DNA from: a virus
Taxonomy: Duplodnaviria; Heunggongvirae; Uroviricota; Caudoviricetes
DNA length: 6,008 bases
Direction: 5' to 3' (one strand)
IMG/VR virus record: IMGVR_UViG_2693429677_000001
The notes under the pieces are model-generated. The model was not told the DNA's origin, did not search any database, and saw only the letters and a list, made by a program, of their open reading frames with translations. Position numbers and translations under genes: made by a program. How positions within the stretch are numbered: position 1 is the first letter of the stretch; the number at the start of each line of letters is the position of its first letter. Shown piece after piece: positions 1 through 6,008 of the stretch.

Positions 1-1044
1 GAAACGTACAAACCGCAGTTACAGGAAGGCAGTGGTCGTACCCAGACTATCCGCATGATTCTGGTTGTCACGAATACCGAAGCCATCACGCTGAAAATCG
101 ACCCGTCGGTGGTACTGGCGACCCGTAAATACGTGGATGATGAAGTCCTGGAATTAAGGCTGTATGTGGATGACCAGATGAGAAACCACATTGCCGCACA
201 GGATCCTCATACCCAGTATGCACAGAAACATAATCCGACATTTACCGGAGAACCAAAAGCGCCGACGCCTGATGCAGGAAATAACACCACGCGGATTGCG
301 ACCACTGCGTTTGTACAGGCTGCTATTACCGCTCTGATTAACGGCGCGCCAGCCACGCTGGACACACTGAAAGAAATTGCCGCGGCCATTAACAATGATC
401 CGAAATTCAGCACCACCATTAACAATGCGCTGTCAGGTAAGCAGCCACTGGATGAGACGCTGACTCATTTGAGTGGAAAGGATGTTGCCGGTCTTCTCGC
501 ATACCTTGGTTTGGGAGAAGGCTCTGCATTACCGGTTGGGGTGCCTGTTCCGTGGCCTTCAGCCACTCCGCCAACAGGCTGGCTGAAATGCAACGGTGCC
601 GCTTTTTCTGCTGAAGAATACCCGGAACTGGCAAAGGCTTACCCGACCAATAAATTGCCTGATTTACGCGGTGAATTTATTCGTGGCTGGGATGATGGAC
701 GTGGAGTGGATGCGGGACGTGCCTTGCTAAGTCTTCAGGATGACTCTTTTGAAGCGCACAGGCATGAGTCCTTTTTTTACGCGGGTATTTATCGCAATGA
801 AACACCATTAAAAAATCTTCCAAGTTCAGACGAGATGCTGACTTTAAGTTCCACAACTAATGCCTTGTCCCCGGACAGTATTGATGCCACTAATTCGTTA
901 ATTGGTAATGATGATTACAACTGTCTGATTGAAGGAAATAAAAATAACAAACGAACGGCGACGGGGTTGAGTACCAGTATTGTCGGTGCAGCAGAGACAC
1001 GCCCACGTAATATTTCATTTAATTACATTGTGAGGGCTGCATGA
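1..1044 (+). CDS. Phage tail fiber protein, 5'-partial (gene starts upstream of window); copy 1 of the variable C-terminal region
   Basis: Frame is open from base 1 (ETYKPQLQEGSGRTQTIRMILVV...) to TGA at 1042-1044. C-terminus ...ETRPRNISFNYIVRAA resembles the conserved C-terminal motif of Mu S / P1 S / lambdoid Stf-type fibers. 4-bp ATGA overlap with the downstream tfa suggests translational coupling. The ORF track's ATG at 55 is an internal Met. Confidence 0.85.
   Translation, partial: ETYKPQLQEGSGRTQTIRMILVVTNTEAITLKIDPSVVLATRKYVDDEVLELRLYVDDQMRNHIAAQDPHTQYAQKHNPTFTGEPKAPTPDAGNNTTRIATTAFVQAAITALINGAPATLDTLKEIAAAINNDPKFSTTINNALSGKQPLDETLTHLSGKDVAGLLAYLGLGEGSALPVGVPVPWPSATPPTGWLKCNGAAFSAEEYPELAKAYPTNKLPDLRGEFIRGWDDGRGVDAGRALLSLQDDSFEAHRHESFFYAGIYRNETPLKNLPSSDEMLTLSSTTNALSPDSIDATNSLIGNDDYNCLIEGNKNNKRTATGLSTSIVGAAETRPRNISFNYIVRAA
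494..519. other. Putative 26-bp invertase crossover site (gix/pix/hix-like), copy inside repeat A
   Basis: TTCTCGCATACC-TT-GGTTTGGGAGAA: two 12-bp half-sites around a 2-bp core. The right half-site matches the TTnTCnnAAACC-type half-site of Gin/Hin systems (compare gix TTCCTGTAAACCGAGGTTTTGGATAA). Lies at the constant/variable boundary of the fiber gene (LGLGE). Confidence 0.5.
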
Positions 1045-1511
1045 TGTATAACGCCATCTTAAATAGTAAATTTATTGCCACAAAGGCAGGAGAGATTACC
1101 GTTTATAACTATGACAGTGAGACACGGGAGTATATTTCTGCATCAACTGAATATCTTGCTGTGGGTGTCGGTATCCCTGCATATTCCTGTTTAGATGCTC
1201 CTGGCACACATAAGGCTGGTTATGCAATCTGCCGTTCGGCAGATTTAAACTCATGGGAATATGTGCCAGACCATCGCGGTGAAGTTGTCTATAACACCGA
1301 AACGGGAGAATCAAAAGAAATCACAGCTCCGGGTGATTACCCTGAAAATACAACCACTACCGTCCCGTTAACGCCATACGATAAATGGGATGGTGAGAAA
1401 TGGGTGACGGATACCGAGGCACAGCATAGCGCCGCAGTAGAAGCGGCAGAAAGGCCGTTGGTGATGCGAATGGTGTCTTGCCGACACCAGACCCGGCACA
1501 GACAAAACTGA
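1041..1511 (+). CDS. tfa: Tail fiber assembly protein (Tfa / P2 gpG / Mu U-like), copy 1, 3'-disrupted: conserved C-terminal domain replaced by 19 out-of-frame residues at the duplication junction (likely pseudogene)
   Basis: Residues 1-137 (MMYNAILNSKF...AAVEAAE) are identical to the intact copy at 2719..3324. After base 1451 the frame runs into fiber-gene sequence and ends RPLVMRMVSCRHQTRHRQN*. The conserved tfa C-terminus (...LDYIDAVTATDTSTAPDVIWPELPEA) is missing. Confidence 0.6.
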   Translation: MMYNAILNSKFIATKAGEITVYNYDSETREYISASTEYLAVGVGIPAYSCLDAPGTHKAGYAICRSADLNSWEYVPDHRGEVVYNTETGESKEITAPGDYPENTTTTVPLTPYDKWDGEKWVTDTEAQHSAAVEAAERPLVMRMVSCRHQTRHRQN

Positions 1512-2722
1512 TTAACCAGAAACGCATCGCGCCGCTGAATCTTCTGAGTGTTGACCCGAACAACCAGAGCCAGATTATTGCGGAGCAAATCATCCCTGAG
1601 AACGAGGGCGGATTCTGGATCCGTGAGATTGGGCTTTATGATGATGAAGGCGTACTCATTGCGGTGGCGAACTGCCCGGAAACGTACAAACCGCAGTTAC
1701 AGGAAGGCAGTGGTCGTACCCAGACTATCCGCATGATTCTGGTTGTCACGAATACCGAAGCCATCACGCTGAAAATCGACCCGTCGGTGGTACTGGCGAC
1801 CCGTAAATACGTGGATGATGAAGTCCTGGAATTAAGGCTGTATGTGGATGACCAGATGAGAAACCACATTGCCGCACAGGATCCTCATACCCAGTATGCA
1901 CAGAAACATAATCCGACATTTACCGGAGAACCAAAAGCGCCGACGCCTGATGCAGGAAATAACACCACGCGGATTGCGACCACTGCGTTTGTACAGGCTG
2001 CTATTACCGCTCTGATTAACGGCGCGCCAGCCACGCTGGACACACTGAAAGAAATTGCCGCGGCCATTAACAATGATCCGAAATTCAGCACCACCATTAA
2101 CAATGCGCTGTCAGGTAAGCAGCCACTGGATGAGACGCTGACTCATTTGAGTGGAAAGGATGTTGCCGGTCTTCTCGCATACCTTGGTTTGGGAGAAGGC
2201 TCTGCATTACCGGTTGGGGTGCCTGTTCCGTGGCCTTCAGCCACTCCGCCAACAGGCTGGCTGAAATGCAACGGTGCCGCTTTTTCTGCTGAAGAATACC
2301 CGGAACTGGCAAAGGCTTACCCGACCAATAAATTGCCTGATTTACGCGGTGAATTTATTCGTGGCTGGGATGATGGACGTGGAGTGGATGCGGGACGTGC
2401 CTTGCTAAGTCTTCAGGATGACTCTTTTGAAGCGCACAGGCATGAGTCCTTTTTTTACGCGGGTATTTATCGCAATGAAACACCATTAAAAAATCTTCCA
2501 AGTTCAGACGAGATGCTGACTTTAAGTTCCACAACTAATGCCTTGTCCCCGGACAGTATTGATGCCACTAATTCGTTAATTGGTAATGATGATTACAACT
2601 GTCTGATTGAAGGAAATAAAAATAACAAACGAACGGCGACGGGGTTGAGTACCAGTATTGTCGGTGCAGCAGAGACACGCCCACGTAATATTTCATTTAA
2701 TTACATTGTGAGGGCTGCATGA
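1478..2722 (+). CDS. Phage tail fiber protein, second copy, 5'-truncated (constant region + variable C-terminal cassette Sv); no credible start codon
   Basis: In-frame coding from about 1452 (KAVGDANGVLPTPDPAQTKL...GGFWIREIGLYDDEGVLIAVAN...), which resembles the N-proximal region of P2 gpH-type fibers. The last 329 aa are identical to 55..1044. The 'M' at 1478 is a TTG with no Shine-Dalgarno; an in-frame TAG lies at 1427-1429. Stop at 2720-2722 overlaps the tfa start (ATGA). Confidence 0.65.
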   Translation: MPTPDPAQTKLINQKRIAPLNLLSVDPNNQSQIIAEQIIPENEGGFWIREIGLYDDEGVLIAVANCPETYKPQLQEGSGRTQTIRMILVVTNTEAITLKIDPSVVLATRKYVDDEVLELRLYVDDQMRNHIAAQDPHTQYAQKHNPTFTGEPKAPTPDAGNNTTRIATTAFVQAAITALINGAPATLDTLKEIAAAINNDPKFSTTINNALSGKQPLDETLTHLSGKDVAGLLAYLGLGEGSALPVGVPVPWPSATPPTGWLKCNGAAFSAEEYPELAKAYPTNKLPDLRGEFIRGWDDGRGVDAGRALLSLQDDSFEAHRHESFFYAGIYRNETPLKNLPSSDEMLTLSSTTNALSPDSIDATNSLIGNDDYNCLIEGNKNNKRTATGLSTSIVGAAETRPRNISFNYIVRAA

Positions 2723-3129
2723 TGTATAACGCCATCTTAAATAGTAAATTTATTGCCACAAAGGCAGGAGAGATTACCGTTTATAACTATGACAGTGAGA
2801 CACGGGAGTATATTTCTGCATCAACTGAATATCTTGCTGTGGGTGTCGGTATCCCTGCATATTCCTGTTTAGATGCTCCTGGCACACATAAGGCTGGTTA
2901 TGCAATCTGCCGTTCGGCAGATTTAAACTCATGGGAATATGTGCCAGACCATCGCGGTGAAGTTGTCTATAACACCGAAACGGGAGAATCAAAAGAAATC
3001 ACAGCTCCGGGTGATTACCCTGAAAATACAACCACTACCGTCCCGTTAACGCCATACGATAAATGGGATGGTGAGAAATGGGTGACGGATACCGAGGCAC
3101 AGCATAGCGCCGCAGTAGAAGCGGCAGAA
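1679..3129. repeat. Direct repeat copy B (perfect 1451 bp)
   Basis: Same as copy A, shifted by 1678 bp. The 227 bp between the copies (1452..1678) encodes fiber constant-region sequence. Confidence 0.9.
2172..2197. other. Putative left crossover site of the invertible segment (pixL-like)
   Basis: Identical to 494..519. Bases 2184..2198 (TTGGTTTGGGAGAAG) are a perfect 15-bp inverted repeat with 4066..4080. Confidence 0.6.
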
Positions 3130-3324
3130 GCACAGCGCCAGTCGCTGATTGATGCTGCAATGGCTTCCATCAGTCTGATTCAACTGAAATTACAGGCCGG
3201 GCGGAAGCTGACGCAGGCAGAAACCACCCGACTTAACGCTGTGCTGGATTACATTGACGCAGTGACGGCAACAGATACCAGCACTGCGCCGGATGTCATC
3301 TGGCCTGAACTGCCGGAGGCGTAG
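2719..3324 (+). CDS. tfa: Tail fiber assembly protein (Tfa / gpG / U-like), intact copy
   Basis: 201-aa ORF, translationally coupled to the upstream fiber gene. C-terminal ...LNAVLDYIDAVTATDTSTAPDVIWPELPEA parallels the C-terminus of the minus-strand tfa' (...LWLDYLDALELIDTSSAPDIEWPTPP), as expected for the two chaperones of an invertible fiber segment. Confidence 0.85.
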   Translation: MMYNAILNSKFIATKAGEITVYNYDSETREYISASTEYLAVGVGIPAYSCLDAPGTHKAGYAICRSADLNSWEYVPDHRGEVVYNTETGESKEITAPGDYPENTTTTVPLTPYDKWDGEKWVTDTEAQHSAAVEAAEAQRQSLIDAAMASISLIQLKLQAGRKLTQAETTRLNAVLDYIDAVTATDTSTAPDVIWPELPEA

Positions 3325-3715
3325 GCCATTCAATATCTGGAGCACTGGAGGTATCAATCAGTTCCAGTGCGTCCAGATAATCCAGCCACAAATTATATTG
3401 CGCCAGTTCCTCACTTTTCAGACGACCAATAGCCGCTTTACCTGGCCATTGTCTGCTGTTCATGTGCTCGTTGGCTTCATTAATAAGTTTTCTTTTTTTC
3501 AAATCCGCCAATGCAATAAGGTTTTCTTTTGATAAAGGTGGTTGCTCTGTCAAAACCGGATATCCCTCCTGATTGCTGACTATTTTCATGCCATTATCCT
3601 GACCATCCAGTAGTAACAGCCATTCATCCGTGGTTATCTCAACAGCATCTGAAGGTGCTTTATTTAAATCGGTAAAAAAACCATTTTCTTTTTGTGAATA
3701 GAAGTATCTGTCCAT
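3296..3715 (-). CDS. tfa: Alternative tail fiber assembly protein (tfa' / U'-like) for the inverted orientation
   Basis: 139-aa minus-strand ORF immediately downstream (on minus) of the alternative fiber cassette: TAA TAA ATG junction at 3713-3721. Conserved tfa C-terminal motif DYLDALELIDTSSAPDIEWP. Its 3' end overlaps the + strand tfa 3' end by about 29 bp. Confidence 0.8.
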   Translation of the reverse strand: MDRYFYSQKENGFFTDLNKAPSDAVEITTDEWLLLLDGQDNGMKIVSNQEGYPVLTEQPPLSKENLIALADLKKRKLINEANEHMNSRQWPGKAAIGRLKSEELAQYNLWLDYLDALELIDTSSAPDIEWPTPPAVQAR

Positions 3716-3718
3716 TTA

Positions 3719-4120
3719 TTAATCTCCAAAAGCAATCCAGTAAGCAAAAGGATTTACTCCTTGCTCAGTCACAGATGACATCAGGGAAAATTGCGATGGT
3801 GAAACAGGTAACGCTGCAAAACTAACCATTGTTGACACACCTGACCGTGCATTATCGTACGATGCAACAACACAATAATTGGTATTGCTGAAAGATATCG
3901 GCAGGGTGATATTTACAGGTGAGCCTAATGGCCCTGATGCTGATATTCCCATTTGAATGATGGTTCCATCAGGCAATTTTCTCCAGCGATTAGAACTCGG
4001 ATTTCTTTTCCAGGCTGACATATCCGGTATCTGATTTTCTCCTGTGCCCACATCCCTTTTCGCCGCTTCTCCCAAACCAACGTTTATGAAAATGCAGAGA
4101 TAACGGCTAACTGGCATCAT
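3719..4120 (-). CDS. Alternative tail fiber C-terminal cassette (Sv'-like); promoterless, expected to fuse in-frame to the constant fiber region after inversion
   Basis: Minus-strand ORF beginning inside the segment next to the right crossover site. Reading from the site gives ...NVGLGEAAKRDVGTGENQ..., sharing the GLGE junction with the + strand fiber (...AYLGLGEGSALPV...) exactly at the 15-bp inverted repeat. The true coding start after inversion would be the crossover point (about 4066), not the ATG at 4120. Confidence 0.7.
   Translation of the reverse strand: MMPVSRYLCIFINVGLGEAAKRDVGTGENQIPDMSAWKRNPSSNRWRKLPDGTIIQMGISASGPLGSPVNITLPISFSNTNYCVVASYDNARSGVSTMVSFAALPVSPSQFSLMSSVTEQGVNPFAYWIAFGD
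4067..4092. other. Putative right crossover site (pixR-like), inverted relative to 2172..2197
   Basis: TTCTCCCAAACC-AA-CGTTTATGAAAA; its reverse complement TTTTCATAAACG-TT-GGTTTGGGAGAA shares the core and right half-site with the left site. Located 55 bp upstream of the invertase start, at the 5' end of the minus-strand fiber cassette. Confidence 0.6.
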
Positions 4121-4147
4121 CTCCGGTTTTTATTCAGGGGGATGATC

Positions 4148-4741
4148 ATGCTTATTGGCTATGTACGCGTGTCAACAAATGACCAGAACACGGAATTGCA
4201 GAGTAATGCGCTGGAGTGTGCAGGATGTGAGCTGATTTTTGAGGATAAAATCAGCGGCTCGAAGTCCGACAGGCCGGGGCTGAAAAAACTGCTCAGGACA
4301 CTATCGGCAGGAGACACGTTGGTTGTCTGGAAGCTGGACAGACTGGGGCGCAGTATGCGGCATCTCGTTACGCTGATAGAAGAGTTGCGCCAGCGTGGTG
4401 TGAATTTCAGAAGCCTGACTGACAGTATTGATACCAGTACCCCAATGGGCCGTTTCTTTTTTCATGTCATGGGTGCCCTGGCTGAAATGGAGCGAGAACT
4501 CATTGTCGAGCGGACACGCGCAGGACTGGAAGCGGCCAGAGCCAAAGGTCGTATTGGTGGCAGACGACCGAAACTCACCGCGAGTGAGTGGGAGCAGGTC
4601 GGACGGTTGCTGGCTGCGGGGGAATCTCGTCAACGTGTGGCGCTGATTTTTGATATTGGCCTGTCCACGCTCTATAAAAAATTCCCCTCATCAGCGACAA
4701 AGAATAAATTGTGTCATCCCTTAGCCAACCGGGACAAATAG
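4148..4741 (+). CDS. pin: Serine DNA invertase of the Gin/Pin/Hin/Cin family
   Basis: MLIGYVRVSTNDQNT...DTLVVWKLDRLGRSMRHL...RSLTDSIDTSTPMGRFFFHVMGALAEMERELIVERT...GRIGGRRPKL...STLYKKF is near-identical in motif content to Gin (Mu) and Pin (e14), with the catalytic Ser in YVRVSTNDQ and a C-terminal HTH. ATG at 4148 has a GGGGG Shine-Dalgarno 6 nt upstream; the ORF track's ATG at 4142 abuts the SD and is unlikely. The symbol is a family-level guess; the exact orthologue was not determined. Confidence 0.9.
   Translation: MLIGYVRVSTNDQNTELQSNALECAGCELIFEDKISGSKSDRPGLKKLLRTLSAGDTLVVWKLDRLGRSMRHLVTLIEELRQRGVNFRSLTDSIDTSTPMGRFFFHVMGALAEMERELIVERTRAGLEAARAKGRIGGRRPKLTASEWEQVGRLLAAGESRQRVALIFDIGLSTLYKKFPSSATKNKLCHPLANRDK
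4165..4250. promoter_or_regulatory. Possible Fis-dependent recombinational enhancer (sis-like) within the 5' coding region of the invertase gene
   Basis: In Hin and Gin systems the enhancer lies in the first ~100-150 bp of the invertase coding sequence. The segment here (gtgtcaacaaatgaccagaacacggaattgcagagtaatgcgctg...) resembles the Hin enhancer region as I remember it. Individual Fis sites cannot be placed by eye. Confidence 0.3.
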
Positions 4742-4800
4742 CCTGACATCTCCGGCACAATTGAAAATACCACTCACCCATTAACCACGGAGTTAAACGG
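4742..4800 (+). promoter_or_regulatory. Intergenic region expected to carry the late promoter / RBS for the FI-FII tail operon
   Basis: 59-bp gap between invertase stop and FI start with an SD near 4788-4792. In P2 the PF late promoter (Ogr-activated, TGT-N12-ACA dyad near -55) sits upstream of FI. I could not find a clean dyad here; an imperfect TGTC-N17-GACA lies at 4722-4746. Confidence 0.2.
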
Positions 4801-5991
4801 ATGAGTGACTATCATCACGGCGTGCAGGTGCTGGAGATTAACGACGGCACCCGCGTCATTTCCACCGTATCCACTGCCATTGTCGGCATGGTCTGCACGG
4901 CCAGCGATGCGGATGCGGAAATCTTCCCCCTCAATAAACCGGTGCTGATCACCAATGTGCAGAGCGCGATTGCAAAGGCCGGTAAAAAAGGCACGCTGGC
5001 GGCATCGTTGCAGGCCATCGCTGACCAGTCAAAACCGGTCACCGTTGTCGTGCGCGTGGAAGACGGCACCGGCGACGACGAAGAAACGAAACTCGCGCAG
5101 ACCGTTTCCAATATCATCGGCACCACTGACGAAAACGGTCAGTACACCGGACTGAAAGCCCTGCTGGCGGCGGAGTCGGTTACCGGTGTTAAACCGCGTA
5201 TTCTTGGTGTGCCGGGGCTGGATACCAAAGAGGTGGCTGTTGCACTGGCATCAGTCTGTCAGAAGCTGCGCGCTTTCGGATATATCAGCGCATGGGGCTG
5301 TAAAACCATTTCCGAGGTGAAAGCTTACCGCCAGAATTTCAGCCAGCGTGAGCTGATGGTCATCTGGCCGGATTTCCTCGCATGGGATACGGTCACCAGT
5401 ACCACCGCCACCGCGTATGCCACCGCCCGTGCGCTGGGTCTGCGTGCCAAAATCGACCAGGAGCAGGGCTGGCATAAAACGCTGTCCAACGTCGGGGTGA
5501 ACGGTGTTACCGGCATCAGCGCCTCTGTATTCTGGGATTTGCAGGAGTCCGGCACCGATGCTGACCTGCTTAACGAGTCAGGCGTCACAACACTGATTCG
5601 CCGTGACGGTTTCCGCTTCTGGGGTAACCGTACCTGCTCTGATGACCCGCTGTTCCTCTTTGAAAACTACACCCGCACCGCGCAGGTGCTGGCCGACACG
5701 ATGGCTGAGGCGCACATGTGGGCGGTGGACAAGCCCATCACCGCAACGCTGATTCGCGACATCGTTGACGGTATCAATGCCAAATTCCGTGAGCTGAAAA
5801 CAAACGGCTATATCGTGGATGCGACCTGCTGGTTCAGCGAAGAATCCAACGATGCGGAAACCCTCAAGGCCGGAAAACTGTATATCGACTACGACTATAC
5901 ACCGGTGCCTCCTCTCGAAAACCTGACCCTGCGCCAGCGTATTACCGATAAATACCTGGCAAATCTGGTCACCTCGGTTAACAGCAATTAA
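4801..5991 (+). CDS. FI: Phage contractile tail sheath protein (P2 gpFI family)
   Basis: 396-aa ORF starting MSDYHHGVQVLEINDGTRVISTVSTAIVGMVCTASDADAE..., which I recognise as the N-terminus and length of P2 FI-type sheath proteins. GGAG-type SD about 8 nt upstream. GC-rich codon usage, distinct from the fiber cassettes. Confidence 0.92.
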   Translation: MSDYHHGVQVLEINDGTRVISTVSTAIVGMVCTASDADAEIFPLNKPVLITNVQSAIAKAGKKGTLAASLQAIADQSKPVTVVVRVEDGTGDDEETKLAQTVSNIIGTTDENGQYTGLKALLAAESVTGVKPRILGVPGLDTKEVAVALASVCQKLRAFGYISAWGCKTISEVKAYRQNFSQRELMVIWPDFLAWDTVTSTTATAYATARALGLRAKIDQEQGWHKTLSNVGVNGVTGISASVFWDLQESGTDADLLNESGVTTLIRRDGFRFWGNRTCSDDPLFLFENYTRTAQVLADTMAEAHMWAVDKPITATLIRDIVDGINAKFRELKTNGYIVDATCWFSEESNDAETLKAGKLYIDYDYTPVPPLENLTLRQRITDKYLANLVTSVNSN

Positions 5992-6003
5992 GGAGCCTGA
6001 CCG

Positions 6004-6008
6004 ATGGC
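6004..6008 (+). CDS. FII: Start of next late gene, probably tail tube protein (P2 gpFII-like); 3'-partial, only ATG GC in window
   Basis: AAGGAG Shine-Dalgarno at 5990-5995 followed by ATG at 6004 (M-A...), in the position FII occupies after FI in P2-like phages. Confidence 0.4.

Follow-up and report, generated by a model that had tools for sequence, protein, structure and literature searches.

A start-less second tail-fibre copy at the joint of an exact tandem repeat in the invertible fibre locus of a P2-like Escherichia coli prophage

Invertible fibre cassettes and the layout of the locus

Invertible tail-fibre cassettes of the Gin/Cin/Pin/Hin type include the G segment of phage Mu (S/U and S'/U'), the C segment of P1, the P segment of e14 and Fin of Fels-2. 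Multiple-inversion systems are represented by Min of plasmid p15B and by the R64 shufflon, the recombinase of which is a tyrosine recombinase. Canonical P2 is not known to have an invertase or an invertible segment. In Hin, an enhancer complex bound by Fis aligns the 26-bp sites for inversion, and in both Mu and Hin the Fis-dependent recombinational enhancer lies in cis, inside the invertase gene (PMC3798978). The G-segment invertase is the subject of a crystal structure paper (PMC3575834).

The window analysed here is the whole of a 6,008-bp draft contig of E. coli, CYBT01000060.1 (assembly GCA_001277775.1), and its genes belong to the late tail region of a P2-like prophage (Table 1). Its single-copy relatives share with phage P2 the order V-W-J-I-H-G ... 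FI-FII and the Pfam content, with H as the fibre and G as fibre assembly. Unlike P2, the window has the H-G pair partly duplicated. The likeness to the Gin/Cin/Pin/Hin cassettes includes a Gin-like serine invertase (E ~1e-92), 26-bp inverted sites sharing TTCTCCCAAACC-AA, a constant 5' fibre part outside the segment with alternative 3' ends and chaperones inside it, and the presence of both segment orientations in public assemblies. It differs from those cassettes in that the left site occurs twice, in direct orientation, giving three sites rather than two. The locus is a standard Gin/Cin/Pin-type invertible tail-fibre system in a P2-type tail operon.

Table 1. Features of the 6,008-bp window, with positions counted from its first base
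Feature	Position	Strand	Remarks
Direct repeat, copy 1	1..1451	+	Begins at base 1 of the contig; corresponds to L002 7532-8982; 100% identical to 1679-3129
Tail-fibre gene (P2 H-like), copy 1	1..1044	+	PF12571 and PF07484 matches; enters the contig at codon 108
Left crossover site, copy 1	494..519	+	TTCTCGCATACC-TT-GGTTTGGGAGAA
tfa' (truncated tail-fibre assembly gene)	1044..1511	+	136 native codons, then 19 out-of-frame codons of fibre DNA; TGA at 1509-1511
Duplication junction, orphan A	1452..1452	+	Templated by neither parent; native Met32 ATG becomes AAG
Tail-fibre gene, copy 2, start-less fragment	1453..2722	+	Without codons 1-32, native SD and ATG
TTG start of the deposited 414-aa CTU38770.1	1478..1480	+	SD duplex of -2.8 kcal/mol, equal to the background median
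Direct repeat, copy 2	1679..3129	+	Identical to 1..1451
Left crossover site, copy 2	2172..2197	+	Identical to 494-519; flipped isomer L011 joins exactly there
tfa, full-length tail-fibre assembly gene	2722..3324	+	200 aa; own SD (GAGGG)
Alternative tail-fibre assembly gene in the invertible segment	3296..3715	-	Caudo_TAP match
Silent alternative fibre C-terminal cassette	3719..4120	-	Gp53-like_C; first ~14 codons lie beyond the crossover site
Right crossover site, inverted orientation	4067..4092	+	TTCTCCCAAACC-AA-CGTTTATGAAAA
Gin-type serine DNA invertase	4148..4741	+	PF00239, PF02796; PDB 3uj3 and 4m6f
Tail sheath gene, P2 FI-like	4801..5991	+	Given for context

The invertase has the domains PF00239 (2e-52) and PF02796 (5e-13), and its residues 1-182 match two PDB entries named 'DNA-invertase', 3uj3 (E 1.5e-92) and 4m6f (E 4e-91), which we take to be Mu Gin. 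The exact protein is present on many contigs that have a single H-G copy. The left sites (2172-2197, and likewise 494-519) and the right site (4067-4092) are 26 bp long, inverted relative to each other, and share the same central dinucleotide; the window has precisely three occurrences of the 14-nt half-site with its core, where 0.06 would be expected. Within the segment are two alternative fibre 3' ends in opposite orientations, each with its own Caudo_TAP chaperone. In copy 1 the 3' part of the fibre gene is complete and has the Collar-type variable end. A scan of the window for promoters and terminators gave matches no more frequent than in shuffled controls.

In L011 (GCA_002232395.1) the reverse complement of window 2184-2294 is joined to window 4081 onward at 100% identity. 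L008 has the Gp53-like cassette joined to the constant fibre part, about residues 1-276, and encodes a 394-aa fibre. To judge from such public assemblies, between which both orientations are found (L008, L011), inversion of the segment does occur in nature.

The repeat and its joint

The window contains a perfect direct repeat of 1,451 nt, in which positions 1-1451 equal positions 1679-3129 with a period of 1678 and zero mismatches; chance origin of an exact repeat of this length is not an issue. Two prophages with a single copy, L002 (GCA_053435595.1) and L009 (Logan assembly of SRR33736427), match window 1453-6008 at 100% identity over 4,556 nt. The entire window can be composed, again with zero mismatches, of bases 7532-8982 of L002, one A, and bases 7306-11861 of L002. 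The single-copy fibre gene of L002 (7211-8575, 454 aa) starts 95 nt before the breakpoint, and the comparison with a full-length homologous fibre that an earlier note on this DNA had proposed locates the break at the third base of codon 32. From there the unit that is duplicated extends to the end of tfa codon 136. Since the unit starts at codon 32, copy 2 lacks the N-terminus, as the earlier note had claimed in describing the second copy as 5'-truncated and the fibre N-terminus as lying outside the duplicated unit; the distance is 32 codons. What copy 2 lacks relative to L002 and L009 is native codons 1-32 (MTVKYYAILTNQGAARLANATMLGSKLNLTQM) together with the native SD and ATG.

The period of 1,678 bp consists of 1,677 templated bases and one orphan A. 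At this position, 1452, the tfa parent has G and the fibre parent has T, and the A is either a one-base insertion or the outcome of 2-nt AA microhomology plus a T-to-A change. It destroys the only ATG possible at the start of the fragment, that of Met32, and fibre-derived sequence restarts at 1453, the third base of native codon 32. The joint thus leaves a chaperone gene cut after codon 136 and a fibre copy without its first 32 codons, SD and ATG.

The joint resembles those of other tandem duplications: the repeat is perfect and head-to-tail, the joint shows no more than 2 nt of microhomology and a single untemplated or mutated base, one gene is without its 3' end and another without its 5' end, and the first in-frame start has been annotated automatically. 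It differs from them in that the repeat happens to contain a recombination site, and is otherwise in no way distinctive. Truncated copy 2 is an ordinary duplication-joint pseudogene, and no new mechanism is called for. The two copies show zero divergence, indicating that the event is very young. The invertase was considered as the maker of the joint and rejected, its site motif being found only at the three expected places and at neither breakpoint. The breakpoints lie 0.7-0.9 kb from the crossover sites and bear no resemblance to them, which shows that the invertase did not make the joint.

Parts of the window match 3,651 of the 5,426 complete E. coli genomes, and 159 genomes cover at least 80% of it. 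The whole-window matches among these genomes are single-copy arrangements only, with a record span of ~4.56 kb, and P2-like sequences occur at a median of two places per matching genome. A 301-nt query across the junction found no place with at least 80% coverage in the complete E. coli genomes or in 50,697 phage records. One half or the other of this query matched in 2,429 of the 5,426 genomes, and half of it matches KC618326.1, 'Escherichia phage P2' (host E. coli O157:H43 str. T22), at 98%. Exact junction patterns of 43 nt and 24 nt had no match in genome, viral and metagenome contig collections. The joint is seen on one 6,008-bp draft contig only and is absent from the 5,426 complete genomes, the 50,697 phage records and three contig collections, both of which speak against a real duplication.

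The best explanation, held with modest confidence, is a recent and probably unstable head-to-tail duplication of 1,678 bp, with copy 2 as a dead by-product and the TTG-started ORF as an artefact. The duplication would fall in the H-G region, that of the fibre and its chaperone, in a P2-like E. coli prophage with a Gin-type invertible fibre cassette, and its joint would give rise to two dead products, a chaperone gene cut after codon 136 and a start-less second fibre. The joint would be present in the sequenced DNA as part of a RecA-unstable duplication, formed presumably by illegitimate recombination at no more than 2 nt (AA) of microhomology. Copy 1 would be the working fibre gene, with its 5' end on another contig, and would be served by the intact tfa with its own SD. 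From L002 and L009, copy 1 is presumably a complete gene. A graph assembler should write a 1.45-kb node twice into one contig only if reads link the end of the node back to an earlier point, and this favours a real joint.

A substantial possibility, short of being the probable one, is an assembly artefact, in which the genome has one H-G copy and the assembler, scaffolder or gap-closer has written the 1,451-nt stretch twice. An artefact would fit a contig that is the whole window and whose repeat starts at base 1, a joint that has one orphan base and is unique across all collections searched, and the single copy in the identical prophages L002 and L009; the median of two P2-like places per matching genome makes repeat-induced graph tangles plausible. 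The same subjects can be described from the side of a real duplication, against which it counts that copy 1 begins exactly at the contig end, that a single untemplated base is also what a filled one-base scaffold gap looks like, and that two 100%-identical prophage assemblies hold a single copy. However, no simple way was found for a k-mer-graph assembler or pair-based scaffolder to duplicate 1.45 kb without reads bridging tfa codon 136 to fibre codon 33. A mixture of orientations of the invertible segment was also rejected as a cause of mis-assembly, since the breakpoints are 0.7-0.9 kb away from the crossover sites. Overlapping ends of a circular contig were rejected as well, the right end of the contig being unique.

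A second P2-like prophage with the 5' part of the fibre gene in common would account for the start of the contig at codon 108. Variant SNPs of the L004, L005 and L008 type imply k of ~84 at the left end of the contig and ~93 at the right end (L002 7532 and 11861), and because these values are inconsistent, the explanation stays a guess. A literature search by accession numbers for the assembler behind the contig found nothing. If the repeat were an artefact, the start-less copy would exist only in the record, and the statements on the fragment and its TTG would hold for the record. That copy 2 is a start-less fragment and its TTG start an artefact is the same whether the duplication is real or not.

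Reading frame and candidate starts of the second fibre copy

On re-reading, the fibre frame is open from 1430, just after the TAG at 1427-1429, to the stop at 2720-2722, in agreement with the earlier note. It reads RRSRSGRK-AVGDANGVLPTPDPAQTKL...GGFWIREIGLYDD... from 1430. In-frame start candidates were listed for 1430-1760 and scored by the pairing energy of the best duplex with the 16S anti-SD. There are just three, TTG 1478, GTG 1664 and ATG 1733, which correspond to native fibre residues 41, 103 and 126. The duplex at TTG 1478 has -2.8 kcal/mol and bad spacing, and -2.8 kcal/mol is also the window-wide median over all positions. GTG 1664 scores -3.8 kcal/mol and ATG 1733 +0.4 kcal/mol, compared with -5.4 to -9.4 kcal/mol for the annotated starts of the other genes in the window. 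ATG 1733 is indeed the first in-frame ATG, as claimed earlier; GTG 1664 had been overlooked among the start candidates. No in-frame start codon with a ribosome-binding site was found at the 5' end of copy 2 (1430-1760), whether at the TTG, the GTG or the ATG.

TTG 1478 is a gene-caller artefact, the first start codon that an ORF caller meets, and the earlier suspicion of an artefact in the ORF track extends to the databases, where the same start has been used. The 414-aa product from TTG 1478 is CTU38770.1, which carries the database name 'phage tail fiber protein [Escherichia coli]'; an exact-sequence look-up places it on one contig only. The earlier note had also suggested confirming the true N-terminus from sequence that precedes the window; the record has none, the contig being no longer than the window.

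The missing residues belong to the domain found at the N-terminus of phage tail-collar fibre proteins, PF12571. The full-length protein covers profile positions 1-150 with its residues 1-150, and copy 2 matches positions 33-150 only, with all three candidate starts inside the domain. No sequence match to a solved structure was found for the fibre N-terminus; the Collar and receptor-binding part of the fibre matches T4 gp12- and gp37-type chains.

A natural domain boundary in 1452-1678, with residue 33 onward as an independently expressed fibre module, is hardly credible. The sole hint of it is the native internal Met32 immediately before AVGD, and in copy 2 this codon has been destroyed (AAG). 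PF12571 is one domain over residues 1-150, and a break at profile position 33 of 150 does not make a domain boundary. The inspected single-copy relatives with the fibre gene within the fetched locus (L001-L006, L008 and L009) each encode the fibre as a single ORF of 394-454 aa directly after gene I. As far as sequence analysis can do so, these points refute an independent module.

The truncated chaperone gene tfa' keeps the first 136 of its 200 native codons, the break falling precisely at the end of a codon, and what remains covers positions 1-87 of the 131-position Caudo_TAP profile. It then runs through 19 out-of-frame codons, and this joint-specific tail reads AAVEAAERPLVMR... before the TGA. 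The chimeric product, in 156-aa and 155-aa versions, gave no record by exact-sequence look-up.

Low-level translation of a real copy 2 is improbable, though less so than an independent module. It could come about in three ways: re-initiation at TTG 1478, which lies 31 nt before the tfa' stop (1509-1511), by ribosomes that terminate there; a -1 slip on the A-run of CAA-AAC-TGA (1503-1511); and initiation at the internal GTG 1664 or ATG 1733. The fibre frame is -1 relative to tfa' and the two overlap at 1430-1511, so that a -1 shift would connect them. An AAAA run (1504-1507), the sole run of note in the overlap, lies directly before the tfa' stop, and a marginal AAGG is found 10 nt ahead of GTG 1664. 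However, the SD scores are those of the background, and no slippery heptamer of the form X_XXY_YYZ occurs in the zero frame between 1425 and 1511. The expression by frameshift or read-through that the earlier note had allowed for would need a -1 shift, and a programmed -1 frameshift from tfa' into fibre copy 2 was rejected because the canonical heptamer is missing from the overlap. The joint also appears accidental, and the zero divergence between the copies suggests that it is too young for selection to have produced a recoding signal. Any product would be short of between 40 and 125 of the 150 residues that make up the N-terminal domain. Such an N-truncated fibre would be unable to dock on the baseplate and might poison trimers. 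Re-initiation at TTG 1478 may give trace levels of a fibre without 40 residues of its N-terminal domain.

CTU38770.1 is a truncated fragment with an arbitrary TTG start, and the main value of the finding lies in annotation and data quality. Pipelines for counting receptor-binding proteins or predicting host range would take in two fibre genes, of which no more than one is functional. Repeats that reach the edge of a short draft contig call for caution in their biological interpretation.

Crossover sites of the two fibre copies

The earlier note took copy 2 to be the copy wired to the invertible segment. Copy 2 does carry a site (2172-2197), and the connection is not exclusive. The left crossover site is within the duplicated unit, so both fibre copies carry it in identical form, and copy 1, presumably the complete one, can recombine with the right-hand site (4067-4092) too.

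Given a real duplication and an invertase that acts on one or the other of the identical left sites, the two-state switch would become a system of three sites and four isomers. This is a tentative suggestion, drawn from the arrangement of the sites and doubtful as it stands. With segments a (507-2184) and b (2185-4079), the isomers would be (a,b), (a,b'), (b',a') and (b,a'). By site orientation alone, two of them would restore wild-type expression from complete copy 1: in one, the intact tfa would follow immediately on a full-length H that ends in the Collar-type part, and in the other an H ending in the Gp53-like part would be followed by the chaperone that belongs to it. The contig itself shows a third isomer, with untranslated DNA ahead of the intact chaperone, which would be 1.2 kb downstream. 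In the remaining isomer, a Collar-type fibre would have only the truncated chaperone in sense orientation. Since a Hin-type enhancer complex aligns sites for inversion, loss of the duplication is more likely to proceed by homologous recombination between the 1.45-kb repeats.

With three sites, nested inversions and four isomers, a real duplication would resemble Min of p15B and the R64 shufflon. Unlike these systems, which have several evolved and diverged cassettes, the extra segment here is exact, probably transient, and provides no new coding end. If the duplication is real, the locus would be a natural three-site substrate for a Gin-type invertase and a small example of how extra cassettes may enter invertible fibre loci. 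A working three-site switch would, if true, be a snapshot of the possible beginning of multi-inversion, shufflon-like fibre systems.

Contig composition and chromosomal setting

The draft contig CYBT01000060.1 (GCA_001277775.1; 6,008 bp) is the entire window 1-6008, and its record holds nothing upstream. Its first base is the start of the 1,451-nt repeat, and its exact composition, in coordinates of the identical single-copy prophage L002, is 7532-8982, an A, and 7306-11861. At L002 17038-20594 this prophage is closed by an Ogr/Delta gene, beyond which lie genes for a U32 peptidase, parDE, a DUF1508 protein and a response regulator. This flank resembles the yegQ-yegP-baeR neighbourhood of E. 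coli, in which K-12 retains a P2 remnant (ogrK). Unlike L002, the variants L004, L008 and L010 adjoin cation-efflux and pfk genes.

The locus L007 (9421-9971; GCA_011902335.1, AARDQA010000001.1) corresponds to window 4119, and its homology to the P2-like prophage begins 27 nt rightward of the right-hand crossover site. In place of the invertible fibre segment, Mu-like early genes stand ahead of the same invertase and sheath region: an rve transposase, an AAA protein, Gam, an IS21 insertion, GemA and Mor. The arrangement suggests either a rearrangement or a transposable phage that may have inserted beside the switch.

Segment orientation and convergent chaperone genes

The fibre segment lies in the opposite orientation in two public assemblies of the same prophage family, L011 (1-140; GCA_002232395.1) and L008 (7275-9970; GCA_044470415.1). 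The L011 contig breaks inside the invertible segment, as would be expected if both orientations were present in the culture.

The tail-fibre assembly gene tfa (+) and the alternative tfa (-) are convergent and overlap at their 3' ends (see table), and this overlap is kept in all single-copy relatives, for example at L002 9149-9177.

The silent fibre cassette

Features of the invertible fibre locus in the window
Feature	Coordinates	Strand
Overlap of tfa and alternative tfa 3' ends, 29 nt	3296-3324	
Silent alternative C-terminal fibre cassette, 133-aa ORF	3719-4120	-

The 133-aa ORF is named a stand-alone "gp53-like domain-containing protein" in many genomes. Its initial codons, about 14 of them, lie outside the invertible segment, and its Shine-Dalgarno sequence is passable (-5.4 to -6.6 kcal/mol). 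Treating this gp53-like ORF as a stand-alone gene is a second artefact that annotation systematically produces at invertible fibre loci.
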